A stretch of DNA of 64,000 nucleotides from Vairimorpha necatrix (lineage: Eukaryota), in NCBI GenBank assembly GCA_036630325.1, contig CP142726.1:372001-436000 (forward strand), written 5' to 3'. The notes beneath the pieces are model-generated. The model saw only the letters and a program-made list of their open reading frames with translations. It did not search any database and was not told the origin of the DNA. How positions within the stretch are numbered: position 1 is the stretch's first letter; each line of letters begins with the position of its first letter. The translations under genes and the position numbers were made by a program. Of the stretch, positions 5,242 through 62,136 are shown one piece after another.

Positions 5242-5246
5242 CATTA

Positions 5247-17332: not shown

Positions 17333-17665
17333 TTAATTATTTATATAAATTTTACCCCCAGCCCACAGAATTCAACATGATGAAAACTATAAAAACGTTC
17401 TTAACGATTACCCTTGGAATATTAAACCAAGGAAATCAGGAACGCTAGGGATAATTCAATTCCTTTATTGTGCACAACGGAGTCAAGTAAAGACTAAAAA
17501 CTAGTTTCAATTTCGTCGTATTATATTTGTTTAAAGGCAGTATCTGTGTTTCGTCAAAAATTTATATTGAGGGAAGACAGAATTTTTGATATTATTAAAA
17601 ACAATAATCAAATCTACAATTAGCACTTTGAAGATTTCGAAATCGACGAAATCTTCAAGACCTAT

Positions 17666-21097: not shown

Positions 21098-21140
21098 TTT
21101 TTGTTATATAATCATTGCATTAATTTAAAATTAAATTTAT

Positions 21141-21960
21141 ACCCCCACTTTATTAAATATGACGAGAATGAAGACTAGAGAAGAAAAGGAACAGTTAAAA
21201 GTGCTGTTTTTGTGTTATAATTCCATCTTGGATAATCACATGATAACTCAGTTATCTTATGATATTTTAAGTAAGGAATGTGATTTTGATCAAAATGATC
21301 TGCACAATTTCTTGGAAGCTGCAATAAGAACATATAATGATATTCCCTAATATAATGCTACGCATGAGATTAATGCATTAAATAATTTGAAAATCTTATT
21401 CATAGATCAAAAATTGAACGAAAAGATAGGTTTATCTTTTTGATTTGCTGCCTATTGCATGACATAGGCCATACAGGTTCCAATTCCCGTGGGCATAATA
21501 AATTTGGTTTAGAAAATCTTTATGTGGATTTTAAAAGAAATTTCCGTATTAATTTTTACCCGGGCATTTGACAGAGGAAAATATGAATTTAATAAGTGAA
21601 TTAATCTTATCTACAAATTTAATTTCACATAATGACGTGCTTGACGATTTAAAAATAAATATATAGGTCAAAAAATTAATAGCGTCGAAAAACTAAATAT
21701 TATTGAATTCAAAATGTTGATAAAAATAGCAGACGTAGGTAAATCGTATAAAAAGTTCAAAGATTTTATGTGTGGAAGCAAAAAGCTCGAGAAAGAAATT
21801 TGCGGCACAAGCATAGGAGGAGCTAAAAAAGGCAGAAGAGGATGCAATTCATCTTAAATTATTCCTTACCACTAGCAGAGTGTTTTCGAAGGATTTTAAA
21901 TTTTTGTATGGAAATACTATTGAAAAACAAAAAGAATCCAATTACAAAAACTTTTTTTTA
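21141..21960 (+). pseudogene. Class I cyclic-nucleotide phosphodiesterase copy 3, disrupted
   Basis: LHNFLEAAIRTYNDIP*, CCLLHDIGH, LILSTN, MLIKIADVG; stops and frameshifts. Confidence 0.88.
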
Positions 21961-23325
21961 GAGTGGGCTATTTGTCCGTGGTGATAGAGCAAATATTTTG
22001 GCTTTTACAAGCGAATTATACGTGTTTGGCGGGAGTCTATTTCCAATCCTCCTTTTAAAATGGGAAAACAAGCCGAGAAAAGATATAAAAACAACAATAT
22101 AAAGCATTTTTTAAGTAATGCAACAATAAAACTTTTAGTTTGTTCGTAACACAGAGGAAATACCTCTTGTGCACAAATTTATAATGGACTTACCGGTTCT
22201 TTATTTAATTAAGTTATTAAGCACTATTTTCGTGCTACTAATGTCTCTGGGTGTAAAGCTTTTTTGGTCTTGTTTTCCAAGGAAATTGTTGACAGATTTT
22301 TAGAGTCAAAATATGTGGGTAGAGGAGGAAAAAAATAGTAAAATTTTTGAATAGATCGGTCGAATGGTCTATTTTTTAAAGAAGTATAATTTATTAATAA
22401 AACTAAATAGTGTGAGAAGCATGAAGCACGAATCTATTTCTCATCTATCAATAGCAAAAAAGAATAATGTTTATATTACATGACCATGTGTTTTTCTATT
22501 TTGATGGATTTTCCAATGTGGTATGTTGCCCCGACGAAAAATTATAATAAAAATATAAAATATTTTTAGTTTTAAATTATTTCACAATATATAAAGGCAC
22601 TAGATCAGTCCGAATTCTAATTTGAGCTTTTTAATCTTTCTATAGAGCTTGTCTAAATATGTAATTCTTATAAGAATTATATATGTGCAATTTTGATTAT
22701 TAAGTGTAAACAAGGGGCTTGTTGAATATTCAAAAATTTTTGAGACATTTTCTTTCCTCAGTTTAAAATAAGGACGTAAATCACAGCCTCTCATGGAATG
22801 GTAAGTGCTATACACGTCGTTATTCAATCTTTTACGATGTGCATTTTTGTTAAGTAGCCACAAGAAAGGAAAATGAAAATACAGTAACTAGATTAATATC
22901 ACAAGGCAACCTTCTTTAAGACAAAAAATGCACATTTATTCTGCACAACTTTGCTTAATTTTGTTACAATTAAAAATTTCGACAGATTATAGAGTAAATA
23001 ACCACAGTTGGTGCTTACAATACGTGAGTTAATTATCATGAGTGCGAAGTTTAATTTATATAAATACCATAAAAAATTGAATTTTTTAAATCCCTTTGGA
23101 TAATAAAAGAACGGAAACCAATAAATCTCGAATTACGAAACGTCGATTTGGGGTTGTAAAAAAATAAAAAACGTCCCATTGACGAAATATCGGATATAAT
23201 TGATCTACATTGTAAACTCGTTGCAGCCATCAATCGAAAACACAATCAACATACTAGATCTACCAACCAATTGAATCAAAGCGAAATTCTTACAGTTACA
23301 GAACATGCTATTTAAAATATAACTA

Positions 23326-24873
23326 CCGGGGTTTCCGGGTTAAGAGATCCAGCTTAAAAGTCGAATTTTGCGACCTTTTAAAAAGAAATTATTATACTAG
23401 TATAAGAGGTCTACCCATATAAGAGATCCACCCCACCCCCAGCCAAATGGTTAAAAAATTATATTAGAAAAATGAACCCTTTATTATAATAAACATTTAA
23501 ATTTCTATAAAATCTTCAAATAAATTTTAACAGTCTGGGCCTTCGTCTTCAATTTCAGCACAATTAAGAACATCTTGAAGTTTATTGTTTAAATTAAAAA
23601 TATTGTTTTCATGAAAAATTGAATCTGTTCCACACAATCTAAAAGCCTTAGAAGCCATTTCAGGAGTTATTTTTTTTAATGCATCCGCTATTGAATTCAA
23701 AATATATTCCCAGCTCGGTCTACGCCTATAACCTTTATTTGTATATTCCTTTGGCCCGTTTGCATGCCATTCCTGCCATTTTCTTTTTAATTCGGCCTTA
23801 AATTAAGAATTTATCAAAACATCCAATGGTTGTAAATAAGACGTAGTTGGGGGAATTAAAACGGCTTTAATGTTATTATTAGCAAAACTTTCCATAACTT
23901 TTTCAGTTTAGTGAGATAATAGGTGTCAAGAATAAGAAGTTTTTTTTTCTATTTTCAAATGGCCCATATTTGTTTAAACATGCACATATCCATAATAAAA
24001 TCAGATTTTGAACATGTTCCCTGATTCAGATGTAACTACAAAAAGATTATTTGGCACAAAGCATTTTGGCGTTTTTTTAAGGCCTTTTAAAATGGCCATT
24101 CCCCTTAAAACAGTACCTTCTGAGGAAATAATAATAACGACGGAAATTTTAGTCTTAAGATTTCCAGTTGTATATGCCTCAGTGTTTTTTTCGCCGGTAA
24201 ATGATAATGTCGCGATTGCATCATATCAATGTAAACAGGAGTTTCATCCATATTATACACCACTGTTTGGCTGTCCATACAGTTAAATTTATGATTAAAG
24301 GCTTCAAAATAATTCAACATGGTTTCTTTAATCTCCTGAGGCCTTTTGTTGTCTTCCTGTCCAAAAGATGTTATTTTTCTAAATGAAAAATGATTTCTTC
24401 TTTTGAACCCCATTAACCAACTCATACTTGCCTTAAAATCTGTAATGGACAACTTCTCTGCTATTTCAAAAGCCTTATCTCTAATATTATAAGTTGAGAT
24501 AATTCGCTTCTTTTCACCTCGCTCTACCTTCACCCAATCCGCAAACATTTTTTCAAGAGGAGGCCATTTGGCAGAAGTACCGGCACGCATTCTATTAGTA
24601 TTTTTAATGTTGCTTTGGCCTAACATTTTAACTTCGGCCTTTATCCAATCACTAGGCATTTTCCTAGTAATCTGCAACTCTAGAGCAGTCATATTCAAAT
24701 TCCCATTGTTTTCACGCAATCTTTGTAATCCTGCTAATTTTTCTTTAGAGTGTACGCTTTCTTTTTCATGGGGGTAAATTTAAAAAAATTTAAAAGAAAT
24801 TTCAAATATTTTATATACTTATAAGAGATCCATGGTCTCTTATATGGGTGGATCTCTTAACCCGGAAACCCGG
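23326..24873 (-). mobile_element. pogo/Tigger-like transposon, second copy (part of the segmental duplication)
   Basis: Same TIRs and TA flanks; ORF 24105-24719 with CENP-B HTH and YNMDETP; frameshifted. Confidence 0.92.
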
Positions 24874-25008
24874 TAATAATAAAACCACAAAAATAAATAT
24901 TTACACTAGAAGTCGCATATGAGTATGTTCTTCATTAAAAACTTTCAAAAAGCAAACATTAATTTTTTTACCACTTTTTTGTGATTAATCATGTGATACG
25001 TGATCTAA

Positions 25009-25792
25009 GGTGCTCTTGGCCCGGTGGTAGAAGGCGATGCCTTTATTGGGCAATGGCTGGGGTTAAATCCCACGGGCACCAATTTATATCTACTTTCTAT
25101 GATGCAGTTAGAGCAACTCAGATTATAAAGGTGTCCCCGATATCATTAAGTTTATTCAATGAAACTTGTGTGTGTCCAGCCATAAGAGTCAGCATCTAGT
25201 GTAGAAACGCGCCTCAAGGGCCAAAAGACAGTATCTCCCTTGTGGTGGCTTATGGTTCCTATAAATATCTAATGGGTACGGGCTAGTTGGAGCCCATGGC
25301 TGGTGCACTCTAGAGTGGGATCCTAGAGCTAACTAATATACTAGAAAAAATAGGGCAATAGAAGGTCTCGTGGATCAAATCATAAAGATTCTGTAACACG
25401 TGGCCAAAACTAGGGGGAGACTGGTGGTCAACGCAGCCCATTAGAAATGCCGAACCGGTGATGTGGTCGGGTTAGGAGCCGTGTGTGCAATACAGATAAT
25501 TGTATGGAGCTTTGAGTCAATACGATGATGTCTTTCCTTGAGTTATAGATAACCATGCTCGTTAAGTATATTCGCTGCGAGGTCACTCTGGACGCGATTT
25601 GAGGTATAAATGGGGAGTGTTTTCCTGGAGCCAAAGTCCAATGGATACGGCGAAGCTTGCTGCACCGCAAGTTGTATGGAGGGAGTTTTAGTGAGTAAGA
25701 ATCTCACAGTACCAGTTAGATGAGGATCACACCCGTATCCCTCTGGTCCCTATGTAAGGTTTCTCCCTACCTCTTACTTACAAGAAAAAAAA
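25009..25792 (+). mobile_element. tRNA-derived SINE-like element, copy 3
   Basis: tRNA-like head, homologous body, A-tail. Confidence 0.85.
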
Positions 25793-26269
25793 TATAATAA
25801 AAATTGCGATTTACAATACACTATTGTCGGTAAACATTTACTATTCAAAATAAAGACGATACCTCAAACATTTATAAAAAACTTTATTAACTTTAGTCTT
25901 GGATATAATGCTGTGATGACCTAAACAAACAAAACATAGCTTATCTCACCATTAGTTTACTATTCTTAACAAATACTCCATGTCCATGTAATAAAACACA
26001 GTCTCCTTTCCAAGAATGGTCTTTCTAAAACTTCTTGTTTTTTGTTTGTTTGTAAACAAACAAACATGTAAAACTATAAATAGCGAAAAAGCCCAAAAGG
26101 GCACGGGGAGCAAGAAGGTCAAAGCAACTCAAATAACAATAATGACAACAGTCTTAAAAATAAATTAACCTCTTCGAGACATTTCTTTGCCTAGGATACG
26201 TCAAATGCATATAAAAGTAAATATTTATGTATAAAATTTATTTTTAAAAATTATCTTTTGTCAGAATTC

Positions 26270-26541: not shown

Positions 26542-28052
26542 TGTCGAATTGAGAAAAAACATTTATATACAAAAAATTATCAAGGATCATTAATTAAATT
26601 TGATTCAGTTTTATGATTTGTTTTTAATATCACAGTAGACAATTAATTCAAAATTTATTAAAATTAACATTAATTTCTATTTTTTAAAAAATCAATGCCA
26701 AATTGTTTTTAATACTACCAATAAAAGGAAAATTTTATGATCATTGTTTTCCGATTTATCATACTGATTAATTCATATATTACATTTGTATATGAAACAA
26801 ATATTTGTGATTGTAACTTACTAGTAATGAATGAAAATGGAATGTAAAAAACACTATAAAAAAGTTTTTTAGTTACTTTTCGAATAATGCAATATGATGC
26901 ATGCAAATGTCACATACTTATTGATAAATTTTTAATAATACAAAAAACAGAAACTCATAAATAAAAATATTGAAAATATGTTTTTAATAAAATTTATTTG
27001 TTACTGTCAAAACACCACATGTCAAATTTTTTAAATTTATGATATTTTTGGCAACTTGTATATAACGAATAAGCTTCAAACTTTAATATCATTAAATCAG
27101 CGTTCACTGACCTTTCTTAATTTTAGATATAAAATACACTTTTTTGTGCATTTGAATTGGAATTCTGTAACATTATTAGTCACATTACTCTATTTTTATC
27201 CCCCAAAAATTTTTTAATTATTTTATCCATAAATGATAAGAATGTCGATGAACAAAGAAAAAAATTCTAGATGAAATGATAAATCAAGAATATATAAGAT
27301 TTTAAATGATAACAACATGAAGATTTATATCTTTTTTAACTCATAATAAAACATTCGCTTGAAAAGAAGAAAGAGCTATCAACTTTTTATGTAATTTCAA
27401 CATTGTATCTAAAACTTTGTAAAACAATTAAGCATGCTTTAGAGTTAAAAATTTGTTAGGTTCCCGTTATAATGTTTAAATTGTAAGGGCTCGTAAATCC
27501 TTATATGATAAAATACTTCTTAATTGCGCCTATTTAGCTAACTTCACAATTATATTTTTTCTTTACAGGTAATGATAGCGGCCCTGACATAGGAACCTTG
27601 GGGGTTTGTAGTGATCTCTAAACAACTTGTACTAATCGATCTTTACTCGCTAAAATTCCTACTATATAAATTGCTGGAGCAGCAACCTGTGCGATATCCA
27701 GTAGACTTGACTCTAGGAGATTATATTTCCTTCTATATCTCGATCGCACGCCAAATAAAATCCCAGCGGGTATACTTAACACACATGTTTTGTGTAACAT
27801 GATAGGATATGTGCTATACTAGCCCAAGGGTCTCTACAATCATTCGTATCGCACACACGTCTCCTTACAGCACAAAAACAACCCCCATTTGATAAACTGT
27901 GTTGACACCAGTTTCTATTTAGTCTTGGCACTATTTTACAAGATCCTGTTGGATAAAGCCCATCATGCCTTTATTTTCTACTTCCTCTTCGTAACCTCTA
28001 ATATCATCCGCCTAGAGTGTACAGACATTGGAACAATTAGGGGTTATCCGGC

Positions 28053-29784: not shown

Positions 29785-30675
29785 ATTTTCTACTTCCTCT
29801 TCGTAACCTCTAATATCATCCGCCTAGAGTGTACAGACATTGGAACAATTAGGGGTTATCCGGCATTTAGTTTTATGTATTTTTAATCGCTACAAAAAAG
29901 ATGTTGTTTTTTCGGGCTTAAGGTGCTTTATCTACTAAGAGAAACCCCCTATGGCTAGATGCACACGAGTTTCCTTTGATCAACTTAATGTTTTTCGACG
30001 ATAATTATATTAACTGTGTTTTCCAACTGCATCATAAAAAGTAGAAACATTTTACTGCCTATGGGATTCGAACCTAGCCATGCATAATGGAAGCATTGCC
30101 TTCAAAACTGGCTAAGGGCCTTTTACCTTTTATATAAAATTTAACATTTTTCTTTAAAATCAACCCGCTCGCTGTCCATGATCATCATTCCAAACCATAC
30201 AGTTTTAAAATTCTTAAAATTTCTTTTGATATTTTTCCGGGGTTCTCCATATTTGTGAAAAGCTCAATCAAACACATTCGTCACGAATTCAGCTTCAATT
30301 ATATTTACACGACTATAATCATTACTTGTTAATTCACGATTTGATTTCGACCCCTGTAATTGTTTATGTCAAATGGGTCGTAAATAATATCAAATAAAAT
30401 ATTATTCTTTTGTAGATTCGGACATCAAAAAAGCAATTTAAAACAAAAGAATCAAATTAAAAATTTATGTCTTTATTTATCATTATAGGGGATAGAAATT
30501 ATACAAATATATCACATCCCCCCTCAAGACGGTTAGTCTCATCTAATTTTCACATCTACCCCAAGCATACCCTTCAGATCATAATGTCTCTTCTTCACAA
30601 GCCCACCATTACTAAGTTTTACAATATAAGAATCTTTTCCACACTTTTCAACAATTTTTCCTGTATCCAAAAATC

Positions 30676-31928
30676 GGTTAAGTTCTCGACTTACCCCCCC
30701 CCCCACCCCTAAAAAAAATAAAAAAGGGGAAAAAATAAAAAAAAATAAAAAAAAATAAAAAAAGGGGAAAAAATAAAAAAAATAAAAAATTTGACCCATA
30801 ATGAGAATTAAAGAATTTAGAAAACTCATCTATAAAAAAAATGAGTTAATGCAATTTTTAATTGCAAAAAACATTTTGAGGGTCCCTATGTGCAATAAAT
30901 GCAATATACCAATGACTCAAAATCGAACCAACACTGAAAACTATCGTTGTTATTCAAGACGTGATGGTAAAAAATGTTCTAACAAAGGAACCATAATGAA
31001 ACAAAGCGTTTTTAAGAACTCAAAATTGCCTATTGAGGATCTTTTAATATTGCTTTGCGAATGGGTAAAGGGTTCAAGTAATTTGGCCGCCACGTTAGAA
31101 CTTGATATAGGTAAATGTACGGTATCAAGATGGTTTACGCGTTTTAATAACGCCGTGTACGTCTCTTATTCAACATATATAAACAATCAAACGATTGGCG
31201 GCGTCGGTTGTATTGTTGAAATTGATGAAACTTTACTTGTAAAAAGTAAAAACCATGCGGGAAGGGTTCTTCAATATCAAGTATGGGCAGTTGGAGGCGT
31301 TGTGAGAGGGGATGCAAATTCTTTTTTCTTTGAGATCGTAGAAAATAGAACAAGAGCTACTCTTGTTGAATTAATTACAAGAAAAATTGCTCCGGGGACC
31401 ACAATTGTGACAGATTGTTGGCGTGGTTATAGTGATATTCAAACAATCTGTGCAGAATATGAGTATCTACATTTGACTGTGAATCACAGCCAAAATTTTG
31501 TTGATAATATAACTGGTGCGCATACTCAGACTATAGAGGGAATGTGGTCGGTTATTAAAAGAGAACTAAGAAAAGGCGGAACTAGTCATGGTACTATTAT
31601 GAATCTTGTAAGAAAGATTTACATTAACAGATTCAAATTAATATATCGTGAAAATCTATTAGATAAAATGTTAGAATTTTTTCAAATAGGTAATTTTAGT
31701 ATTGTAGCTTATGATATTATTCCTGAAATAGACTTTACAATTGTGGAATAGTTTTTTTGTTTTTTTTTTTTTTTTGGGGGGTAAGGGGGGGGTTAAGTCG
31801 AGAATTAAACGTTTTTTTATTTTTTCCCCTTTTTTTATTTTTTTTTATTTTTTCCCCTTTTTTTTATTTTTTCCCCTTTTTTTATTTTTTTTAGGGGTGG
31901 GGGGGGGGGGTAAGTCGAGAACTTAACC
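30676..31928 (+). mobile_element. Intact Merlin DNA transposon inserted in the Gypsy integrase region
   Basis: TIR GGTTAAGTTCTCGACTTACCCC...; perfect 8-bp TSD CAAAAATC. Confidence 0.95.
30801..31751 (+). CDS. Merlin / ISXO2-like DDE transposase (316 aa)
   Basis: N-terminal Cys ribbon; IGGVGCIVEIDET, TDCWRGY, VNHS, HTQTIEGMW. Confidence 0.95.
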   Translation: MRIKEFRKLIYKKNELMQFLIAKNILRVPMCNKCNIPMTQNRTNTENYRCYSRRDGKKCSNKGTIMKQSVFKNSKLPIEDLLILLCEWVKGSSNLAATLELDIGKCTVSRWFTRFNNAVYVSYSTYINNQTIGGVGCIVEIDETLLVKSKNHAGRVLQYQVWAVGGVVRGDANSFFFEIVENRTRATLVELITRKIAPGTTIVTDCWRGYSDIQTICAEYEYLHLTVNHSQNFVDNITGAHTQTIEGMWSVIKRELRKGGTSHGTIMNLVRKIYINRFKLIYRENLLDKMLEFFQIGNFSIVAYDIIPEIDFTIVE

Positions 31929-36994: not shown

Positions 36995-37855
36995 ACCCAT
37001 GCAAGAAAAAACATTTATATATTATATACTATAAAAAAATTAATTAATAACAATACTAATTAGAGTTTCTTCATCAACAAGAAACAATTGGTTGAATATC
37101 GTTAGTTAATGTGATATTATATTGAATTTTAGAAAATAAAAAAAGTACTAATCCATTTTTAGTATTAACAATGCAATTTGATTCTTTATTTATTGTTTTC
37201 ATAGATCTATCATATACATATATTAATTTATTACATTTAATTATGAATCCAAATTAAAAATTATATTTTTATCAGTGAATTAGTTTAAGACAATAATATT
37301 AGAAAAAAAAGTAGTAGGATATAGTTTTTATTCTATATATAATTATAATATATTTTACCATATTTGCTTCTGATCAATTTAATTTAAATAAGTTATATTA
37401 CCAAAATGATCAGTTATTTGTTTTGAATGAACTGCTATATAATGAAAGTAAAAATACGAAAAAAATTTACGTCGTAATGAATGAACATAAATGCTTTAAT
37501 CGTTTTGTTTTTGTTTTTTGATAAAAAATAAAAAATGTCAAATATTTTGATGTTTGAATCATCAGACATAACAAAACATTCAATAATAAATAAATTATAA
37601 TCTATTCATCTTAATAATGAAATATAATTCATACTATTGTATATTGTTTTTTAAAAAGTTATTGGGTATTAATATTGTATTGAGTTATATAATATTACTT
37701 TATTTATTATGAAACTAGACAAAACTTTCTTAATTTAACAACGGGCACTCATTATATTAGTAATACGTACCTTTTGGCGTCAATGTAAAGATGCAATATA
37801 TTGGACACGAAGGTTCCTCTTTGCAAATATTATTAATTATATATCATCTCAATAA

Positions 37856-38649
37856 AAGGTGCCCTTATCACAGTGGTAGAATGCTATGCTTCCATTGAGC
37901 AATAGCTGGGTTCGATTCCCAGGGGCACCAAAATTGTTTCTACTTTCTATGATGCAGTTGGAACAACTCAGATGATGAAAATGTCCACGATAATCATTAA
38001 TTTGATTCAATGAAACTTGTGTGTGTCCAGCCACAAAGGGATTAGCATCTAGTGTAGAAACGCACCTCAAAGCCAAAAAGCAGTACCGCCCTTTGGTGAC
38101 TTTTTGATACATAAAAGTATCTAATGGGTACGGCCTAGTTGGAGCCCATGGCTGGTGCACTCTAGAGTGGGATCTTGGAGCTAACTAAGAGACTAGACGA
38201 AGCAGGGCAATAGAAGGTCTCGTGGACCCTATCCTACATGATTCTGTAACACGGTGGCTGATACTAGTGGGAGACTGGTGGTCAACGCAGCCCAATAAAA
38301 ACGCCGAGCTGGGGATGTGGTCGTGTAAGGAGCCGTGTGTGCAATACAGATGATTGTAGGGACCTTTGAGTCAGTACGATGATGTCTCTCCTCGGGTTAT
38401 AGATAACCATGCCCGTTAAGTATATCCGCTGTGAGGTCACTCTGGACGCGATTTGAGGTATAAATGGAAAGTGTTCTCCTGGTGCCAAAGTCCAATGGAT
38501 ACGGCGGAGCTTGCTGCACCGGCAAGTTGTATGGAGGGAGTTTTAGTGAGTAAGAATCTCACAGTACCAGTTGAATGAGGATCACACCCAAATTTCTCTG
38601 GTCCCTATGTAAGGTTTCTCTTTACCTCTTACTTGCAAGAAAAAAAAAA
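37856..38649 (+). mobile_element. tRNA-derived SINE-like element, copy 4, with a 15-bp TSD
   Basis: ATATCATCTCAATAA at 37841-37855 and 38650-38664; head 37858-37930; poly(A). Confidence 0.93.
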
Positions 38650-38934
38650 ATATCATCTCAATAACATACATTAATTGCTTTTACATCTTATTTTTAAATT
38701 TCAAATTGTGTTGATTAAATTAATATAAGAAAATTATAGTTTTTTGAAAATAGTAGAAATATTTTCTAACCATATGAATTGTACGAGTGATTAAATTTTA
38801 ATATTATTGTATATAAGAAATTTTTAACATTTCAATGTATTTTTATGTTATTTTCACAATATTTCATTCTAGTAGTAAATATTAAATTAAAACTCTTTGT
38901 TTATGTTTTAACCGTATTCCAAAATCTTTGGGAG

Positions 38935-41900
38935 TGTTGGAGTAAAAACATGGGTTTATTTATTATAAAATATTTAAAGACAGACATGTCAAATCTCAAG
39001 ATAGACACAGTTGGATTTGACATGTGTCACTCTTCCTACACTACTTTACCTTTAAAAGCTTAACATGATTTCGACTTGCCATTATCTAGTAACACCTTAA
39101 ATGAATTAAATCGCAGTTCTACGACCGTTCCCTTTTCTTCCCATTTTGGTTCAAGTTTTCCTCTGAACGGTAGCATTAAATAATACCAAACTCTATCGCC
39201 CACCTTAATAGCATCTTTATCCGTGGAGTTGGCCTTTTTACTCGTGTCGTATTCTCGTCTGTAAACTTCCAAGTTCTTAATCGCTTGCTCTTGAAACTCT
39301 TTCTTATCTTTTGTTAAATGCATTCCTTCTTGTATTTCTAACTTATTTGGAACTATTCCTGTTAAGAGTTCTATTGGTGCACACCCTATAGCCCCATGAT
39401 ATGATTGCATAAAGGCTCTGACTACCTTGGGGACACATTTTGCCCAATCGAATTTCCCAAATTCTGTGACTTTTCTTAATTTTATAGCTATTGTTCTGTC
39501 AAACCTCTCAACAAGCCCTGTGGTTGTAGGTTTATAAGGGGAACCATATTTCCAGATGAATTTTTTGGTCCTCGAATATTCCTCACAGATATTATTTTTG
39601 AATTCTATGCCATTATCGGATAAAATGGCCTTTGGAATGCCCTACTTCCTGATTATATGTTTATCTACCAAATAAATAATTGTGTTCATGTCTTTCGTAT
39701 AAATAGGCACTACCTCTGCAATTTTAGAAAAGTGGTCAATCATTGTCAATAAGAATTTATACCCTTGTTCGTTTTCTCCCAAGGGCCCTACCATGTCTAC
39801 TTCCCAAATTCCGCCAATAGTCTTTGTTACTAATAGTACAATGTCACTAAATTTTCTCTGGGGGTTTTCTTTTTGACAAATTTCGCAATTATCTACGTAG
39901 TTTTTATGTCTCTGCCTATATTTTTCCAAGTAAATTTTCGACCAATATTATATTTCATATTTTGTTTTGATCCATGACCTAATAGATCATGGTAAAATCT
40001 TAAGAGTACTAAAATCCTTTCTTTTTTAATTATTTTCTTTTTTATTGTATTTTCTTCTATAACAGTCTCCTTCTGTTTCTCAAATTCTCTGCTTAGGTGG
40101 TCTGTATAGTTTGATGGTCCTGTAATGTATTCAATATCGAAATCATATTCTTGTTACAGTAATGACCATCTAGCCAACCTAGCTTTACATTCCTAGACTT
40201 AAACAAATATTTCAAAGCCCGATGATCCGTTTTTAGTGTAAATTCCCCTAATAATAAATATTCTCTGAAGTATTGAATAGATTTTATTACTGCTAGCAAT
40301 TCTTGCTCAGTAGTGGAATAGTTTTCTTCTGTCTTGGAATGTAAAGAACTGTAATAAGATATAATCTTTTCTTTCCCGTCACAAATTTGCGCCAATGTGG
40401 CCTCGCATCCCTCATTCGATGCATCTGTAGTCAAAATAAACTTCACCTTTAAATTTGGTATCGTCAATAAGGCCGTTCTCCTCATAGCCCGTTTTACCTC
40501 TTCTATTGCCTTGCAGTATTCCTTATCATTCTCTGCATTTTTCCAGAAGCTATCTGCTTCCTAGTTCTTAAGTCTTATTATATCGAATAGTGGACTAACC
40601 ACTTTGTGACTGTTTTTAATAAATTTGGAGCAATAGTTGTATAGCCCCAACAAAGATTGTAATTTCTTCTTACTCTTAGGAACTGGCAATTCTTGAATGC
40701 TTTTAACTCTTTCTTCGTCAACACTTATTCCCTCCTTTGATATAACGTGCCCTAAAATTTTTAAGTGGGTCTTATTAAATTCGCACTTCTTTTTATTAAG
40801 TTTTAGTCCTACTGACTTGAGCTTTTCTAATACCCTTTTAACATCTCTTCTATGATCTTCATCCGTTTTAGTATAAATTAGTATATCGTCCATATATACT
40901 ACAACAAATTTAAATAAGAATTCTTTTAAGATATTATTCATCACACGTTGAAATGTAGCTGGTCCATTGACAAGCCCAAATGGCATTTTAGTAAATTCAA
41001 ATAGTCCTTCTCTACAGGCATAGGCTGTCTTTTCTATATCACAAGGCGCCATATCAATTTGATGATATCCCGATTCTGCATCCAATTTTGTGAAGTAACT
41101 AGAGCCTTCTAATGCATTTATAAATTCTTCTACTCTTGGTATTGGGTACGCGTCTTTAATCGTCGCATCATTCAACCTTCTATGGTCCACACTTAACCTG
41201 TGAGCCCCATTCTTTTTTTGGAACAATAATAATTGGACTTTCCCATGCACTTTCATAGGTCTTATGATTCCCAAGTTCAGAAATTCTTTTACTATTTTAG
41301 AGGATATGTCTTCTTTCTGCACCACCTAACTTGTATAACTGTTTAAGTATTGGTTTATCATCTTTTGTGATGATCTTGTTATAACCTATGGCTTTCCCCT
41401 TTGCCATTAACCCAGATTCAAATTCCATTCTATTATCCCCAAATTTTAAATTTATTTTGTATTTATCAAGTAACCCATGTCCTATGATACATGGAATTGT
41501 AATATCTCTTGTTATAATAAAATTATCTTCAAAAATCATCCCTTCTATTTTAATCTTAGCTACCGTTTCCCCAATAATTTTTATCTTTGACCCGTTCGCT
41601 GCTCTAAGTTGTTGTTTTGACGGACCAACAATAGTTTTATTTGGTAACAATTCTGGTCTAATCAGATTTAAATCTGCTCCTGTATCGATCAGTACTTTAA
41701 ATTTTGCTTCAAAATTATTCAATGAGGCGGCCTTAAGTGTTACTCTAGTGTCATTAAATCTCGAAAGGGAATAGTTAAAAATAATTTTATTGGAATCACA
41801 TTCTTTATCTTTTTCCTCTTTCTCTTCCATTTTCTCTATTTCTCTCACATTCTTCCTGAGGATATTAAATCTGCATTGAGCAACTATATGACCTTTTTGT

Positions 41901-42611
41901 CCGCAAATAAAGCACCTAATTTTTGCTTTCTTCTCCGTTTTCCAATTATTTTTCTGGGATACCTTTCCCCTAATCGCATCCCCCTCCATTGGCTCTCCTC
42001 GTGCTACTTCTGCATATCTTGGTCCATTTTCGCATTTCACATTCCTCAAAGCTCTGTAGATGTACTCCCATGATAAAGAATCATTATTGTTTATTAACAC
42101 AATGTTTGCTATGTCATTAGGTAGTCCTTTTAATGTAAAAGCTATCATACACATTCCGGGACATTGCCTTTTCGTGCCAATCCCGCCATCTTATCTAGAT
42201 AATTTAATAAAGAACCGCCATGATATCTTAAAGAAGAAAGTTTATCAATAGATATTTTTAATTGTATATTGCTAAAAAATCTTCCTTTGAATCCCTCGAT
42301 CAATTTATCAAGCCCTAGTCCCATCGGCTGGGAGTTAATCCAGTCCCTTGCTTCTTCTTTTAGAGACATTTTAAAAAGGAGTAAAAGCTAAACCAAGCTG
42401 AAAACCTTCAGCCTCCCCAACTCTAACAAGTCCTCCAAGAACTGCTGTGGGTCTTCTTTCTCTTCATTTCTGAAAGTGAGAAAGTTCTTGTCCTTGTCGC
42501 CAAATTGTTGGAGTGAAAACATGGGTTTATTTATTATAAAATATTTAAAGACAGACATGTCAAATCTCAATATGGACACAGTTGGATTTGACATGTGTCA
42601 CTCTTCCTACA
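38935..42611 (-). mobile_element. Ty3/Gypsy element 2 with 106-bp LTRs
   Basis: LTRs 38935-39040 and 42506-42611 (3 mismatches seen); PBS TGGCGACAAGGA; gag CCHC, protease LIDTGA, RT YMDD, RNase H, integrase; several frameshifts. Confidence 0.95.
39060..42522 (-). pseudogene. gag-pol of Gypsy element 2
   Basis: ORF pieces 41297-42154, 40561-41325, 40093-40485, 39642-39929 and 39060-39410. Confidence 0.9.
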
Positions 42612-43224: not shown

Positions 43225-44300
43225 AAACGAGTATCTAAGGATTAGGTATAGCTTTGTAGGAAAGATAACCCAGAAGATGCTAATAGAATCCCAAAAGCGC
43301 TTTACAACAAAATTAACATAAGGACAAACTATGGAAAGTTGTTTAAAGCTAGGGACAATGATTTAGTAAGCATTGGGGACTCTTCTACCTGGCTGGTTAA
43401 AGGAAACAATCGGGCTAGATCCGAAGCAATTTATTGCTTCCTACAGGATAGAAATATCTTCTGTGGACATGAGGGACAATGTCCCCATTGGGGTGTTCAT
43501 AGGAAGACCGTGGATCATTTAGCTACCAAGTGTGATCGAATGCTGGGTTTTGATTATATGAAAAGACACAACGAGGTAATTAGATGCATTTATCTCTTAC
43601 TATGTATTAAATATGGGTTTAAGAAGACAAAGAAAATACGTGGACACTCAGTACAAGAGATCATGGAAAATGATCGTGCAGAAATAAGAGTAGATACGAG
43701 AATATACACTTTTATAAAGGTGACCCATAATAAGCTTGATATTCTTGTGTTTGACAAGAAGAAAGAAATTTTAATAGTTGAAGTTGGTATAACCAACCAG
43801 GATCGACATACTATAGTTGGAATGATAAACTAAGAAAATATGACCTTCTTGCAAATGAACTAGGACTAATACATAAGTTCCGGACAAGAATAGTTCCTTA
43901 TGTAATAATATGGGATGGAGTGGTGACCAAATATCACAGAAAGTACATCAGAGAGCTAGAAATCCAACGCTATCTGGAAGCATATATCCAGTCTATTGTG
44001 ATGAAGAAGAATCTAGAGCTCATCTCTTCGGAACGACGACGAGGATACGATCAGGAGGATGCAGGAGAAGAAGTGGCTAGAGCTGTAAACGCACTAGCGA
44101 ATATGGCAACTGTTAAAGAAATGATGTTGGCAAAGGGGAATGAAGCTGAAAAGGTGAAGTTGGAAAACATTAATAATTCCACAGAAACCAAAGTCTGTGA
44201 AGACCTGAATCCCATGGGCGATATTGGGAAAAGCTGTGCTATGAATTTTTAATCTTAATTATAAATTAACTCAATAAATCTTTTATTTCCTGAAAAAAAT
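43225..44300 (+). mobile_element. 5'-truncated RLE non-LTR retrotransposon copy
   Basis: ORF 43339-43833 (DHLATKC, RHN, DILV, EVG) and ORF 43920-44252; AT-rich tail. Confidence 0.9.
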
Positions 44301-49070: not shown

Positions 49071-52063
49071 TACTTTAATTAATTCTTTATATGCTTTATA
49101 ATCGTTTTTATTAAATTCGACAAAATTAATTGAGACACGCGTTTAAAAAATTAAAACCTATATGAATACATCAATATGCTTTGTCAGGGACAGATCTCCA
49201 GTGGTCCTAAGATTACCCTGGAGACCAGAGAATATCATTCCGTAGGTATTCTTCTCTTTCTCTTTAATTATGTTTTGAAGGGAAAATACTTTATTTTCTC
49301 TCCCACAAACATAAATGAAAATCATACCCAGAAAAGTATGAAGCAGTTAAATAAAATAGTAAATAAAACTAACTCTTCTCGAACTGCTGGGCAACCAGTA
49401 GTCTACATGCTTTATTTTGTCAAATTCATAAAACCTAGAACCCAATGCTCATTTTCATAAAATAGGTCTTGGTCTAAAAAACAATAAATAGTAGTGTTAT
49501 ACCCTCACTAAGAACAATTATACTTAATTAAAAAAGATGTTCCAGATCAACGTTTTAATTGGTACTCGGGTAACCAATTCGATTTGATTTAGAAAAAACT
49601 ACTTAAGAAAATTATTTTAAAATAAATATGAACTACTCTCCAACTTGTAAATCTATTTACATCTCCTTTTTAAAAAACAACAAGGTACCGCCAAGACATG
49701 GCAGGTAGATTTAACAAATTCTTAAATTGTTAGTTAGCCGGGTATACCAGCTAACCTTGGGACCAAAGAAGCGTTAAAAAGCAAATCAAATGCTGTGATA
49801 TAAAAAAGCGATTATGAAAATCTGATGGAGAATATGGTTCTACAGGTCATGAATGCTGTCAATATAATATGCAATATATTAATAGCAACCACCCCATCGT
49901 AATTATAATGGCGCTTTACCACTGCTGCTATTGAACAGTACCCATAACTAAATAAAGAATGTAATTCTGAGTCATGCTACATATAAAAATAATAATAAAA
50001 AACAGATATATACAAACAACAAATAATCAAATATGAAGTAGAAGTAGATAGTGATATCTAGATTAACGACGCAGTGTAAATCTATAAAAAAGCTTTATCA
50101 TTGTACTAAAGGCGTGTTGGGAATCACTCTAAGTGTATAAAAAGAAGAATAATTTTTACGAATATAAGTCAAATCTAAAGGCCAAAATTTGCGTCTTAAT
50201 AAAAGACGATATATCATAAACCACAAAAAATATTGTAGTATACATAAAAAAAAATATGCAACGAACAGGGCTTTATGCATTAAAATTCTCATTTTTTCTT
50301 TTGACTAATAGTAAAGAGACGGTTTTCTTTAAAAGCGCGCAGACCCCATGTTTAAAAAAGGACGCAATAAGTCGCAAGATTTTTCCCTTTATTCTAAATC
50401 TTTATTATAATTTTTAATGAAATATGTGCTCAGATATCTCAAACTATTAATGTGTAAATACTCGGATTTTTTTGCTTAAATATTAAAAATGTCTTTGTAT
50501 TTAAAAAGCTTTGTAATGTTATAAATTACATTACTATAATCGGTGTCAATAATATCATCTGTCAAATATTCATCAATGCGTTTCAATGCGTCAATAAACA
50601 AACAAAAGAATGCCTAGCAATAGGTTTATAAATGTAAAAGCATTGACCTATAGTAAAACTGTTAAACAATAATTATATTAAAAATAAAATTTAAAAATTA
50701 GTTTGTCTTTGAAGGGTATGGAATAACAGAGAAGTTATAAAACCATCAATAGATACATTGACATCAACAATATTTTAGACAGCTAATATTAATATAGCAA
50801 AGTCCTGTCTTTACAGGACAAGGTTATTGCTGCAAATAGCATTTTCCACTGGTTATGGCGACTATGCCGAAATAAAATAATAAATATACATGTTTTGCTT
50901 TTTCATGTTTGTTCCATCAAAATTTACTCTCATTGATTTTGTAAAAAAAGTCATATTTGCTATTTAACTTAGATAATATGTGATTTCCACACGTTCTCAA
51001 TATTTTAATCATTATAGAGCGATAGGATTAAAGTTGTTATATACTACATTAAATTCAACATCGCATTGCAAAGTTGTAAGGCCTAACCTTATTTGATTTA
51101 CATTATTTAGATCTTATTAATTTTCTTCTGATCCTGTTTGATTTCAATGTGAGGTTTCTGGGTACATTTAGACGTATCATTAGTAATCACTTTAAAATTC
51201 TATTTTTGGACTACCAGACACATGTTCATATTTTTTTTTATTGATCAAATCCTTTAAGTTATGGTAAATATTTTGTACCTCCTCTCACATAACTTTTCTC
51301 AAAAAAATCCAGAGGACTATAATTTAGCCCATTTTAATATTCTCTCCTGGGAATTATGAAAAAAAAAATATACCCCAAAAAATCCATTCAATTTCTGGCA
51401 GCAATAAAAAACGACTATTGAATTTGTATTTCATATGTTCTCTTTGCTCGGCCGCAACGAACATGGGAATTTGTAAGTTAATAGACATTTGGAATAAATC
51501 TTTACGTGAAATCGTTTACATGTAACACTGACCATTTTTGGGGTAGATATTCAGTATAATATTTGTGTTGAAATTACTATTGTAATAGTTTCATCAGTGC
51601 CGCATTACAACATTCTTATTTGCTTTCTCGGGGTTATCGATTATAACTATATGCCCTTCTATGATGTTGTTGTTTTTGTATATAATTTCTAATATCATTT
51701 TAACGTGTACGTAATAAAACAAGTATCACCAAGTAGAATGTATTTTTTAAATATGATTACTGTTTGTTACAATGTATTAAATGTTATGATTATGTAATGA
51801 CTATGATTGAGGGATAAGAAAGAGCGAATATAGCAGAAAAAATAGTTTGGACTTGTATAAACTTTTATGTCTGTTACATAAATTTAAGCAAAACGTTTTT
51901 TCAATACACTTCCACCTTAATCTTTTTCTATTTTTTCTTTATTGAATAACTTTGGAGAATATTTTTTGTTAGGATTGGATATAGAGAAATAAGGAGGAAA
52001 AGAAATTTTAACACCTTCCTCGGTGCATAAGATATCACAAAAAAGAAATTATACAAAAAATGT

Positions 52064-52405
52064 TTATTTTTCTTTGATAAACAGTACATTCGCCCACTTG
52101 TATAAATGCAACAAATATTTGCGATCTAATTCGTCGCAGCTTTTTCCTTTTCTAGCTCCTGGTGTAAAGTTTCTCCTTCTTCTTTGAAACCACCAATTAA
52201 TTGAATTGATGTTCAAATCAAGAAGCGCGCTCAAGTCTTCTACTAAATTCAACGATGGACATTGAACTCTTTCAAAGGTGTTTATGAGAACATACTCTTT
52301 AACTGCCGTATATCCTCTTTTTTTGTGTTTTTTGTTTTCTTTTTTTAATTTAAGTAGACCGAATAAAGCCTCTGCCAAAGTATTATCGTCTAAAAAGTTA
52401 TTCAT
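52064..52405 (-). CDS. Small homeodomain protein (copy 4, intact, 113 aa)
   Basis: KRGYTAVKEYVLINTFE...PS...LSALLDLNINSINWWFQRRRR; GGGG motif before the ATG. Confidence 0.85.
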   Translation of the reverse strand: MNNFLDDNTLAEALFGLLKLKKENKKHKKRGYTAVKEYVLINTFERVQCPSLNLVEDLSALLDLNINSINWWFQRRRRNFTPGARKGKSCDELDRKYLLHLYKWANVLFIKEK

Positions 52406-53679
52406 ACCCCTCAGAGAAATTAATAATTAAATACTTAAATTTTTATATAAAAATCACATTATATATATTATTAAACTAATATAGGCTGTTGTTTTCAAAA
52501 AAAATCAGAGAAACTTATTGAGTGTATTTAAACATTAATCTTATATTGCAATGTAGAAAAAAATTAAATTAGTAAAATATGATTTGTTAATGCAATATAA
52601 TGTTTACATTCTGTTTATTGTTCAATGATTCACAATTATTCATATATATTGATTTATTACTTTTGTTACCGAAATAAATATTTCATATATTAGCTTTAGC
52701 ATATTATTTAATTAAATTAACACAATTGAAAAACCATTTTTTATGTAAACATACTCATTATTGAAATTTTTTAACTATTTGTAATTACTTTAAGAGGTGA
52801 ATTTAATTTTAAACCATAATGTTAATGGAAATTATAAACAAAAAAATTTTGAATAAATATTTTCACAAAATTTATTTGTTTTGGTAATAATCAAAACATG
52901 TCAAATATTTTGATGTTTTGTTAATTATGCGTCAAAAATATACGAAACATGAATAATATTAAGAAAAATTATTTTACATTTATATAATGAAATATTAACA
53001 ATGTTGCTATATATTTATTTTAATGTTATTAAAAAAATAATAGACTATAATTGTAATCTTACGTTCTTTTAAGAAATATCGGGCCATTATTAAATAAAAT
53101 GTCTATCTGTTTTGGAAATAGAAGATCCTCAGAGCAACATAACATCAAATGGATTTTTATTATAATAGAGGTGTTATAAATTACCAATCAATATGTACAT
53201 TCAAACTGTACAAATTACAAGCCAAATAATGGATTAGCATTATAAATATTCTCTATATAACAACTTTAACATTATACAGTATAAATATGACATAAAAGGT
53301 CACATCAGTATACCATTAAATGCCGATTTTTTTATTCTGTCCCTTCTTTAAATCATAACGAAAACAAGCAATGCGGGAAAAGAAAATTATTATGAAATTC
53401 ACTATAAATACCTAAATTTCATAAGAAAGCAAAGTAGTTTCATTAATTTTTCTAAACTCGCAATCTTTTTTTGTTTGCACAAAACTGTGTCTTACTTAGC
53501 TATAAGAATAAATCATTACTATATCGTTCCAATAAATATTAATGGCTGATATATATAGATATATTTCATTAAATATTTGTTTGTTTATTGAAATTATGTA
53601 AAATAAATCGCTTTAATTTTTAGCACACAAGCAAGAGTTTTATAATGATAATATACAATTAGCGACTTTCTAGCTTTAT

Positions 53680-54300
53680 CAAATGAAAAAATATGGGGGT
53701 TCACATATTAATTATAAATAGTGCGGAAATAAGGGTAGATACGGGATATCCAAATTACAGGGGGACCCATAATAGCCTTATATTCTTGATATTACAAGAA
53801 TCCGAGTGAAATTTTAGAAGTTGAAGTTGTAAAGTTAATCAGGATCGGTTTACTATGGTCGAGAAAGAAAAACTAAGAAAATATGACCTTATTGCATATG
53901 TATTGGGACTAATACATAAATCCCGCACATAAATAGTTCCTTATGTAATTACAAGGAAAGATGTGATGATCAACTATCACAGAAAATACATCGGGGGTTG
54001 GTAAATCAACTTTAACTTGAACATTCGGCCATTATTGTGCCGAAGAAAACTCTAAAATCCCTCTCTGTAAACAGCGACGAGAATGTGACCACAGGATGCA
54101 GGAGAGAAAGAAGTTGGTCAGATGTTGCGCACTTGCAACCATGGCGACTTTAAAGAAGGGATATCTTTGAAGGATAATGAAGCTTTAAATCTGGAGTTAA
54201 AAAACGAATTTAATTTTAAAAACAATAGTCTGCGAAGAGTTTAATCCCATAATCGATATAACAAGCTCTTGTTAAATCTAAATACATGAAAAATAAACTG
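53680..54300 (+). mobile_element. Decayed 3' fragment of the RLE non-LTR element
   Basis: Homology to 43600-44260 (EIRVDT, EKLRKYDL). Confidence 0.75.
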
Positions 54301-54737
54301 CATAGTTTATTTTTATTTTTTTTTACTCATTCTATATACAGATAAGAATCCTTGAAATAACTTGAAAGACTGATGATGGTTAGTTGCCAAATCAAGAAGC
54401 AGCCTCTATACTGGCAGCAGATAGACGCTTGAAGAACTGGGTTTTTGAGATAGCTAGAACAGCTTTGTAAGTAAATCTAAAGACATTATTTAATCCATTA
54501 TTAATTGGAATTTATGTTTATACACTTTAAAACAGGTTAGTGTTGATATATTTAACATGTTGCTGCAGTATTTTTCTTTGTTTGTTGGCGCGTTGATATG
54601 TCATCAACGAAACGTCTGACGGGGAATTGTTCAGGCGTCTGCAACTGCGAACTAGGCATTTATTATGCCCATAATCATAAATAAGTCAAAAGCCTTCGGC
54701 CTTCACTTTAAAACGATATATGATCATTAAATTATAT

Positions 54738-61752: not shown

Positions 61753-62136
61753 ACCCCATTAAGACATTTGTAAAAAACTCAATGGTGTCACTATTTTCTC
61801 CGTTAATTTTAGCAATACATGTAGAATTGCATCAAGATTGTTTATCCTTCTAAATACACAAATTTTTGTTCGTTGTATTTTTGTGTTCTATATGATCTAA
61901 TCTACGTGGTCTCTTTGATATTAAATTTCGATATTAAATCAAGGCTTGTGAATGTTCTTTTCATTACCTAAAAACCACAAGCGTTATGGTATCATTTTAT
62001 ACTTTATGCGCACCTCCTTATTTTGTACATTTTTTTAGTACCATTTAATATTATAAGTTGATAGATAGAACCAGAGCAAAATTCCTATAAATCTACTATT
62101 TAATATAGATCTTAATTCAACCCCAGGTCGCATAAG

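Follow-up and report, generated by a model that had tools for sequence, protein, structure and literature searches.

A probable tRNA-derived SINE family of about 790 bp, recently active in a repeat-rich microsporidian genome

Introduction

The tRNA-derived SINEs of fungi include MgSINE of Magnaporthe, Foxy of Fusarium and the ~700-bp Eg-R1 of Blumeria, and SINEs as a class are usually under about 600-700 bp in length. Genome reduction has its classic example in the Microsporidia, yet repeats make up half of the larger genomes in the group. Published surveys of microsporidian repeats deal with LTR elements, LINEs and DNA transposons. Our literature search, confined to main texts, found no published microsporidian SINE; the word is absent from the main texts of the microsporidian genome and transposon literature searched. 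A second system of interest is R2, which, together with its derivatives, inserts site-specifically in 28S rDNA and is not known to leave long duplications or A-tails. Non-autonomous elements derived from R2, the SIDEs, are reportedly treated by Eickbush and Eickbush in 2012, and we know of no 15-bp duplications made by RLE elements such as R2.

Here we analyse a repeat family of about 790 bp in a stretch of 64,000 nucleotides (the window). With the tRNA-derived SINEs, fungal ones included, it shares a tRNA-related head, box A- and box B-like motifs, a non-coding body and an A-rich tail, as well as target-site duplications (TSDs), a dispersed multi-copy spread and subfamilies of different age. 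It differs from them in its length, which reaches or exceeds the upper limit of the class, in its microsporidian host and in having no recognisable LINE-derived tail. The full copies, at 784-793 bp, exceed the usual SINE range, but we treat length as a convention and not as a mechanistic criterion.

Copies of the family in the window

That the host is a probable microsporidian, as the first-pass annotation of this DNA had proposed, is supported by the similarity of three window genes to Vairimorpha: an intact IS1595-type transposase ORF (94% identity to a Vairimorpha necatrix protein, across 49% of the ORF's length), a pseudogene of a PKA regulatory subunit (88% identity to a V. necatrix protein) and the LINE endonuclease ORF (82% identity to Vairimorpha apis proteins). 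A Protein Atlas search with the transposase returned animal and bacterial clusters, which are uninformative for taxonomy.

BLASTN with copy 4 and an nhmmer profile built from the four full copies recovered all six copies of the family at the places first claimed for them, namely four full-length copies on the plus strand and two old ones (Table 1). The old minus-strand copy is split by an insertion of ~1.75 kb carrying MULE-type ORFs (30119-27555). Besides the close pair indicated in Table 1, copy 3 has 87.0% identity to copy 4 and 86.7% to copy 2, and copy 1 has 82.2-83.6% identity to the other full copies; between-copy divergence spans 5% to about 30%. GC content falls with copy age, from 46-47% in the young copies to 35-40% in the old ones. 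The ends of the unit are fixed: in the four full copies, and likewise in the old minus copy, the first position lies no more than 3 nt from the tRNA 5′ end, and the unit finishes at CTT(G/A)CAAG plus an A-run. Copies 2 and 4 and the old minus copy have unrelated flanks. The exception to independent flanks is the pair formed by copies 1 and 3, whose 5′ flanks match over 100 bp or more and which lie at the right end of a duplicated 4.2-kb block whose homology stops within ~10 bp of the A-tail. Since the 5′ flank is shared, this pair represents one insertion, duplicated afterwards together with its flank, and the earlier count of two insertions here is not borne out. The six copies, amounting to five independent insertions, occupy 6.9% of the window. 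Two exact patterns taken from conserved parts of the element matched 0 stretches in metagenome_contigs and 0 in viral_contigs.

Table 1. Positions in the window of the family copies and of the parts of copy 4.
Feature	Positions	Strand	Description
Copy 1	3375-4162 (end 4161/2)	+	Full length, A10 tail, most diverged of the four full copies
Old copy without head	13334-13838	+	5′-truncated, profile positions 78-645, GC 35%
Copy 2	15151-15939	+	Full length, A10 tail, 95.1% identity to copy 4
Copy 3	25009-25792	+	Full length, A8 tail
Old minus copy, tail-side half	27555-28040	-	Profile positions 276-786, A6 run at end
Old minus copy, head-side half	29796-30119	-	Profile positions 4-333
Copy 4	37858-38650 (end 38649/50)	+	Full length, A11 run
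TSD of copy 4, 5′ copy	37841-37855	+	ATATCATCTCAATAA, 15 bp, then two A before the head
Head of copy 4	37858-37930	+	73 nt, acceptor stem 7 bp, weak D arm, anticodon position CAT (ARAGORN)
Body of copy 4	37931-38631	+	About 700 nt, non-coding, GC about 46%
3′ domain of copy 4	38524-38629	+	Rfam RF00524 (R2 element 3′UTR) matched below threshold, model positions 79-206
Terminal palindrome of copy 4	38632-38639	+	CTTGCAAG
A11 run of copy 4	38640-38650	+
TSD of copy 4, 3′ copy	38650-38664	+	Exact 15-bp repeat of 37841-37855

Anatomy of the element

The tRNA-like 73-nt start first described for the preserved copies is recovered by ARAGORN, which at a relaxed threshold gives a 73-nt cloverleaf in all four full copies (anticodons TAT, CCA, TAT and CAT in copies 1 to 4) and at default settings calls two of the four heads, 15151-15223 with anticodon CCA and 37858-37930 with anticodon CAT. 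In size, and in the 7-bp acceptor stem and canonical T arm seen in copies 2 and 4, the heads are like genuine tRNA genes. A B-box-like GGTTCGA(T/A)TCC is exact in three copies: the head of the old minus copy contains GGTTCGAATCC, the T arm of copy 4 contains GGTTCGATTCC, and copy 2 has one of these two forms. The A-box-like motifs carry 1-2 mismatches against the consensus, which is TRGCNNAGTGG for the A box and GGTTCGANNCC for the B box. Judged from the letters, these motifs are a putative RNA polymerase III promoter. In other respects the heads are unlike genuine tRNA genes. Their D stem has 2-3 pairs, and none of them attains the gathering score of the Rfam tRNA model: the window as a whole has no Rfam match at gathering level, and the best head is that of copy 2 (25.9 bits against a gathering score of 29); the copy 4 head scores as mascRNA-like (24.2 bits) and as tRNA-Sec-like (19.1 bits), in each case below the respective gathering score. 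Because the anticodon triplet occurs in three versions, the head is not a working tRNA. A functional tRNA gene was rejected on this variation and on the sub-gathering scores. In contrast to genuine tRNA genes, moreover, the head is in every case fused to the same 700-nt body.

A comparatively GC-rich, non-coding body of about 700 nt had also been claimed, and it stands: GC is 43-47% in the element against 31% in the remaining window. The longest stop-free frames, of 91-123 codons, lie on the minus strand in a frame that differs from copy to copy, and none of five ORFs tested reached a Pfam cut-off. A coding body was thus discarded, there being no conserved ORF and no Pfam family. The suggestion that the body might be a captured structured ncRNA is not supported. 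Its folding-energy z-score is -0.49 in sense and -0.41 in antisense, no more stable than shuffles, and Rfam searches at E up to 10 returned no family for the body beyond noise-level miRNA and snoRNA rows; on the same grounds, rRNA was rejected along with captured ncRNA as the source of the body. The body of copy 4 holds a T5 run, and that of most copies a T4 run; such internal T runs could stop polymerase III. Only copy 4 has the T5: at 38103-38104 both public runs considered below, X1 and X2, have A as the majority letter. Depletion of T runs as a polymerase III signature is uninformative here, with 1-2 runs of at least T4 per copy against ~3 expected on our own rough estimate.

At the 3′ end, CTT(G/A)CAAG followed by an A-run closes all four full copies, in agreement with the original description, and the tails measure A10, A10, A8 and A11 in copies 1 to 4. 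The perfect 15-bp TSD reported for copy 4 is likewise present as an exact repeat. For the other copies the expectation of A-tails and TSDs held in its first part and failed in its second, inasmuch as copies 1, 2 and 3 yielded no convincing TSD; a candidate at copy 2 was rejected as a split 8+6-base match that does not adjoin the element ends. A clear TSD is thus present in one of four full copies, or one of three independent full-length insertions.

Empty site and depth in public runs

Contigs of X1 and X2 contain the empty site of copy 4, joining 37840 directly to 38650 and omitting 809 bp, which removes exactly the unit and one TSD. At the joint, 14 letters are compatible with either side. 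The evidence consists of one contig in X1 (depth 5.4, shorter side 96 letters) and one in X2 (depth 44.3, shorter side 43 letters). In two further data sets, therefore, the matching site lacks copy 4.

Between the bins of 37858 and 38650, summed contig depth rises from 5-11 in the flank to 227-1014 in X1 and from 23-129 to 6,468-247,188 in X2, or to about 40-190 times and about 100-3,800 times the flank, respectively, where summed contig depth is not to be read as copy number. Within the element, X2 shows a 5′ to 3′ gradient of about 40-fold, and X1 shows none. In X2, the loose ends behind 38650 run through A-runs into differing flanks (8 contigs), and in X1 the loose ends before 37857 are mutually discordant (3 contigs, agreement 0.59). 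Moreover, the majority letter differs between X1 and X2 at no fewer than 6 places (37990, 38291, 38302, 38343, 38529 and 38577), which suggests separate subfamily expansions. Eight of 12 public runs contain any of the stretch, and none contains more than 0.40 of its words; none of the 12 is registered as an RNA run. X3 has pieces of the element with a flank depth of 0, and X4 a few short, poorly matching pieces; runs with a small share of the stretch are bat gut, freshwater and bovine metagenomes.

Relation to the co-resident LINE

Only one LINE family was recognised in the window, and its endonuclease is of the RLE (R2) type. The absence of a 3′ tail common to this LINE and the element, already remarked upon in the first-pass annotation, was confirmed. 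Alignment of four LINE 3′ ends showed that the 3′UTR spans about 100 nt and lacks an A-tail. Local alignment of the final ~200 nt of each of the four SINE copies with four LINE 3′ regions gave no score above shuffles in any of 16 comparisons (every observed score was reached by 72 or more of 200 shuffles). The four-copy profile, run over the window, matched SINE copies only and no LINE 3′ end. Two LINE ORF fragments had no match in a PDB sequence search; a full-length relative, P0103, for which RVT_1 is the only Pfam domain, is matched about equally by L1 ORF2p and R2 reverse transcriptases.

The 3′ part of the element resembles the R2 3′UTR element and the SIDEs: the ~105 nt just upstream of the terminal palindrome match positions 79-206 of RF00524, a model derived from insects. 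The match scores 23.4 bits (E 0.016) in copy 4 and, at the same place, 21.7 bits in copy 2 and 20.4 bits in copy 3 (three of three copies tested, sense strand), against a gathering score of 38. RF00524 is not listed in the Rfam search of the whole window and has no match in the LINE 3′UTRs of the window. Consensus folding and pair counts over five tails revealed no covariation above shuffles (169 of 500 reach the observed score). The element is therefore unlike the R2 3′UTR element in score and covariation, and we take its R2-like 3′ fold as a lead only. The resemblance to R2 extends to the R2-type endonuclease of the co-resident LINE; unlike the 28S-specific R2 and SIDEs, however, the element is dispersed and has a 15-bp TSD and an A-tail.

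Discussion

The family very probably consists of tRNA-derived, non-autonomous SINE-type retroposons of ~790 bp in the repeat-rich genome of a microsporidian close to Vairimorpha necatrix, a reading already advanced from the letters and supported by fixed ends, the tRNA head, the lack of coding capacity, the A-tail, and the TSD and empty site of copy 4. Weighing against it are the single clear TSD among the four full copies, the length, the lack of a LINE with a matching 3′ end in the window, the sub-gathering scores of the heads and the T runs inside the body. The family is recently active and has been mobile over a long period, given that its copies differ by 5% to ~30% and that copy 4 is absent at its site in X1 and X2. 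Its proposed mechanism is that of an ordinary SINE. RNA polymerase III would transcribe a source copy, using the A and B boxes within the degenerate head. The transcript, which would carry a templated A-tail and perhaps a stem-loop domain at its 3′ end, would be captured in trans by a LINE reverse transcriptase. The LINE enzyme would nick an AT-rich target, and the RNA would be copied by target-primed reverse transcription. Such an insertion would end in an A-tail and a 14-15-bp TSD, of which the duplication and the empty site are observed, and the inserted copies would then decay neutrally toward the AT-rich background, the fall in GC being observed as well.

Within the SINE reading, and not exclusive of it, is the possibility that the SINE came by horizontal transfer from an animal, either an insect host or some other one. 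Two published reports describe transposon transfer between microsporidia and animals (PMC4202319; PMC4038834). The element lies about 15 GC points above the genome background, and its 3′ domain weakly resembles the insect-derived R2 3′UTR model. Against this, the stretch occurs in only 8 of 12 runs, with no more than 0.40 of its words in any of them, and a repeat common in insects should turn up in far more runs; we regard a horizontal origin as quite unlikely.

Very unlikely is the proposal that the copies are retropseudogenes of an ncRNA gene whose long product serves the host and has a tRNA-like domain at its 5′ end, and thus a by-product instead of a selfish SINE. Such a source would keep about 46% GC in a region of ~31% GC while its copies decay, which matches the GC values, and the head does score as a mascRNA-like tRNA mimic (24 bits). 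But the body has no Rfam family and a fold z-score of -0.49, no candidate master locus is known, and a depth of tens to thousands of times the flank, with at least two subfamilies, is typical of a self-propagating family.

Alternatively, the unit could be the 3′ part of a longer retroelement, with the sequence upstream of copies 1 and 3 as its remainder and copies 2 and 4 as 5′-truncated versions. The upstream sequence common to copies 1 and 3, the end of the 4.2-kb homology ~10 bp from the A-tail and the 40-fold gradient in X2 could all be read in this way. However, the tRNA 5′ end is the starting point of copy 2, of copy 4 and of the old minus copy, with unrelated sequence upstream, and random truncation would not produce three such starts. 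Moreover, depth steps at 37858 in both X1 and X2, X1 is free of any gradient, and the empty site corresponds exactly to the unit and one TSD, all of which makes a longer parent element highly improbable. Spread by DNA-level segmental duplication only, without an RNA intermediate, fits the duplicate pair of copies 1 and 3 but has next to no chance of accounting for the family, since copies 2 and 4 have unrelated flanks and the A-tail, 15-bp TSD and exact empty site of copy 4 contradict it.

To return to the SINE reading, it raises a question: with the RLE type the only kind of LINE seen in this genome to date, which reverse transcriptase mobilises an A-tailed element? In a bolder version, the element would be the first SINE family of Microsporidia and would be moved by the RLE LINE itself and not by an APE-type LINE; recognition would proceed via the R2-3′UTR-like fold together with the A-tail, and insertion would be dispersed, with 15-bp duplications. 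We consider this version unlikely. If true, a SINE partnered with an RLE LINE and inserting at non-specific sites would represent a novel form of retroposition. For the biology of the group, a recently active, polymorphic SINE would supply a transposon class that has been missing for Microsporidia, and the presence or absence of its copies would offer markers to distinguish the ~96%-identical haplotypes and strains of tetraploid Nosematidae.

Results

Public sequencing runs bear directly on whether the tRNA-headed, A-tailed repeat of ~790 bp has moved. Parts of 37600-38900, the region around full-length copy 4, are present in 8 of the 12 listed runs, none of which holds more than 0.40 of its words, and contigs from four runs were aligned to this region at 80% likeness or more. 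Summed contig depth, which is not equivalent to copy number, is far higher over the element than beside it: flank values of 5-11 compare with 227-1014 within the element in one run (X1), and values of 23-129 with 6,468-247,188 in another (X2), with the step located in the bins containing 37858 and 38650. The family is clearly highly repeated, with the ends proposed for it in the first-pass annotation. Moreover, one X1 contig and one X2 contig join 37840 straight to 38650, skipping 809 bp, and 14 letters at the joint can be placed on either side of it; this joint is the pre-insertion site, with neither the element nor the second copy of the duplication. The empty-site contigs differ from the window at about 4% of nearby flank positions, and since V. 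necatrix is described in PMC10759460 as tetraploid with haplotypes that are 96% identical, the empty allele may be that of another haplotype, strain or sister species. The loose ends of eight X2 contigs past 38650 consist of A-runs and then other sequence, and those of three X1 contigs before 37857 are mutually discordant (agreement 0.59), such varied flanks being as expected for many insertion sites. The majority letter differs between X1 and X2 at no fewer than six places (e.g., 38291, 38302, 38529, and 38577), at which copy 4 is of the X1 type; this suggests that the subfamilies that expanded differ between the two organisms. X2 depth also climbs ~40-fold from head to tail of the element, a gradient not seen in X1, and over 37858-38650 the X2 contigs include many internal skips whose sides are short. 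The gradient and skips could reflect many copies truncated at the 5′ end or deleted internally, or a different repeat with a common 3′ part.

Within the window, BLASTN of copy 4 matched three fragments besides the full copies, and these were assigned with an nhmmer profile made from the four full copies to two old ones, a head-less copy on the plus strand and a minus-strand copy whose halves lie ~1.75 kb apart, with MULE-type ORFs in the DNA between. The six copies first reported are thus real and correctly positioned, and SINE-derived DNA accounts for 6.9% of the window. Pairwise identity is highest between copies 2 and 4 (95.1%), followed by copies 3 and 4 (87.0%), copies 2 and 3 (86.7%), and copy 1 against the others (82.2-83.6%). 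However, copies 1 and 3, taken earlier as separate insertions, lie in a common 4.2-kb duplicated block that includes the upstream flank and count once, so the window holds five independent insertions. The block (1-4172 and 21648-25804) is a direct duplication of 4,178 columns, 94.6% identical. Over its first ~3.27 kb, each of 16 bins of 200 columns has 185-200 identical positions (92.5-100%); at 3271/24903 identity drops abruptly to 73-90%, a level that holds through the entire element and the ~100 bp of flank just before it, and this step is not where the pogo-like element within the block has its inverted repeats. Block homology ends within ~10 bp of the A-tail, and the copy 3 3′ flank has no other match within the window. 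Since the homology of copies 1 and 3 extends into the 5′ flank, they are one old insertion that was duplicated along with its upstream flank; our guess is that the left part of the block was homogenised later, perhaps by gene conversion, or has another history. Retroposition of a read-through transcript via the SINE tail (5′ transduction) would also account for homology ending at the A-tail, but it leaves the identity step unaccounted for.

Features of the window (full copies 1 to 3 located by BLASTN of copy 4, old copies by the nhmmer profile)
Feature	Position	Strand	Remarks
SINE copy 4	37858-38650	+	73-nt tRNA-like start; ends CTTGCAAG + eleven A
SINE copy 1	3390/3375-4162	+	full length
SINE copy 2	15151-15939	+	full length
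SINE copy 3	25009-25792	+	full length
Old minus-strand SINE, first half	30119-29796	-	profile positions 4-333
Old minus-strand SINE, second half	28040-27555	-	profile positions 276-786
Old head-less SINE	13334-13838	+	
LINE copy	~5832-9420	+	
LINE copy	18560-21102	-	
LINE copy	43226-44290	+	
LINE copy	53718-54400	+	
LINE copy	11203-12211	-	
Short pogo/Tc5-type element	23329-24871, also ~1680-3240	-	23-nt perfect TIR 23329-23351/24849-24871; ORF with HTH_Tnp_Tc5
cAMP-dependent protein kinase (PKA) regulatory-subunit copy	17573-18339	+	frameshifted, C-terminally truncated; residues 2-257 of 313
IS1595/ISXO2-type (Merlin-like) DNA transposon	30676-31928		apparently complete; intact 316-aa transposase ORF 30801-31751
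Ty3/gypsy-type LTR retrotransposon	38929-42611	-	106-bp LTRs 38935-39040/42506-42611, 97% identical
Ty3/gypsy-type LTR retrotransposon	58081-61758	+	LTRs 85% identical
Further repeat family	4171-5809 and 51356-52657		67-80% identical; starts directly behind copy 1 A-tail

With default settings, the only tRNA-like genes that ARAGORN called anywhere in the window were two SINE heads, those of copies 2 and 4. At a relaxed threshold, all four full-copy heads form a 73-nt cloverleaf with a D stem that is two or three pairs long, a T arm, and a 7-bp acceptor stem, the last paired completely in copies 2, 3, and 4 and with one mismatch in copy 1. The T arm of copies 2 and 4 contains GGTTCGATTCC, and GGTTCGAATCC is present in the head of the old minus-strand copy. 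The anticodon triplets of copies 1 to 4 are TAT, CCA, TAT, and CAT, and no window match attains the gathering level of the Rfam tRNA model (best head, copy 2, 25.9 versus 29 bits). The heads are thus not tRNA genes but putative promoter modules of tRNA origin. The body is non-coding: its longest frames without a stop (91-123 codons) run along the antisense strand, in a frame that varies between copies, and none of five ORFs tested reached the Pfam cut-off. The idea that the body is a captured structured RNA found no support in tests that are themselves weak, with no Rfam family accounting for it and a fold no better than shuffles (z of -0.49 sense and -0.41 antisense). All four full copies end in CTT(G/A)CAAG and then 8-11 A, and an A6 run still terminates the old minus-strand copy. 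The perfect 15-bp target-site duplication (TSD) claimed for copy 4 was confirmed as an exact direct repeat (37841-37855 and 38650-38664). Among full copies only copy 4 has a clear TSD; at copy 2 the best match is split (8+6 bases) and away from the junctions, and a search at copies 1 and 3 found none.

GC content is 46-47% in young copies, 43% in copy 1, 35-40% in old copies, and 31% in the rest of the window; this fall with age implies that inserted copies decay toward background while the source stays GC-rich. Such a source fits either selective constraint on its RNA or an origin in a GC-richer genome, from which the family would have arrived fairly recently, and transposon transfer between microsporidia and animals is documented (PMC4202319, PMC4038834).

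Only one LINE family was recognised in the window, as five decayed copies. Its coding order is reverse transcriptase, then a CCHC motif and a C-terminal PD-(D/E)xK-type endonuclease (RLE, R2-type), with no APE domain recognisable in these copies. The 5′ end of the copy at 5832-9420 adjoins a (TA)n microsatellite. Public relatives are 1,143-1,185 aa long, with named matches that include V. apis, Hamiltosporidium, a bee, and Theileria equi; the full-length 1,185-aa relative has RVT_1 as its sole Pfam domain, and its matches to L1 ORF2p and to R2 reverse transcriptases are about equally good. Four aligned 3′ ends define a 3′UTR of ~100 nt without an A-tail. As previously noted, the SINE and this LINE have no common 3′ tail: the search with the SINE profile matched only SINE copies, and 0 of 16 local alignments scored above shuffles. 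About 105 nt before the terminal palindrome of the SINE resemble positions 79-206 of the Rfam R2 3′UTR model (RF00524) on the sense strand, with 23.4 bits for copy 4, 21.7 for copy 2, and 20.4 for copy 3, all well short of the gathering score of 38 (E of 0.012-0.024, in small searches); the model is absent from two LINE 3′UTRs used as controls (best rows with E of at least 1.7). This 3′ domain is a candidate lead only. Weighing against this lead are the low scores, the non-independence of the three matching copies, the lack of covariation by pair counts, and the habits of R2-type elements, which are site-specific and are not known to leave 15-bp duplications. The TSD and A-tail of copy 4 would fit an APE-type LINE outside the window.

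The window is nearly all transposon debris, with Ty3-type reverse transcriptase and integrase ORFs, a pogo/Tc5-type ORF, a MULE, and an IS1595/Merlin-type transposase. The suggestion of a microsporidian host held, on the strength of three matches to Vairimorpha proteins: the intact transposase ORF aligns over 49% of its length with a V. necatrix protein at 94% identity, the PKA regulatory-subunit copy is 88% (BLASTP, larger ORF) or 83-84% (tblastn) identical to V. necatrix versus 65% to V. bombi, and the LINE endonuclease ORF has 82% identity to V. apis proteins. By these identities the host is a nosematid microsporidian and a near relative of V. necatrix. The PKA copy is probably a pseudogene; it adjoins a LINE fragment. 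The Merlin-like transposon, ~550 bp from the old minus-strand SINE head, has inverted repeats of ~110 bp (30676-30781 and 31812-31928, 90.6% identical). The two Ty3/gypsy-type elements are of one family (73% mutual identity), the minus-strand one with long gag/protease, reverse transcriptase, RNase H, and integrase ORFs. In the further repeat family, an ORF at 52064-52426 on the minus strand has a weak homeodomain-like match.

Discussion

Anatomy and the empty site of copy 4 support the proposal that this family is a SINE. In both respects, and on the points tested, it is like a tRNA-derived SINE; it differs in being over the conventional length limit and in that no matching LINE partner was recognised in the window. 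In listings and abstracts of the literature on microsporidian and Nosema SINEs and transposable elements, no microsporidian SINE is described, and none appears in passages of PMC11585130, PMC13702014, PMC6190962, PMC6416283, and PMC10946416. The main texts of the genome paper for V. necatrix (PMC10759460), two microsporidian transposon surveys (one being PMC4202319), and two recent comparative papers likewise do not use the word SINE, and the RepeatMasker table for Microsporidia sp. MB in one paper gives 0 SINEs. The family may already be listed in a repeat library under some name, supplements, Repbase, Dfam, and SINEBase lying outside this comparison. It is probably the first SINE reported from the phylum Microsporidia.
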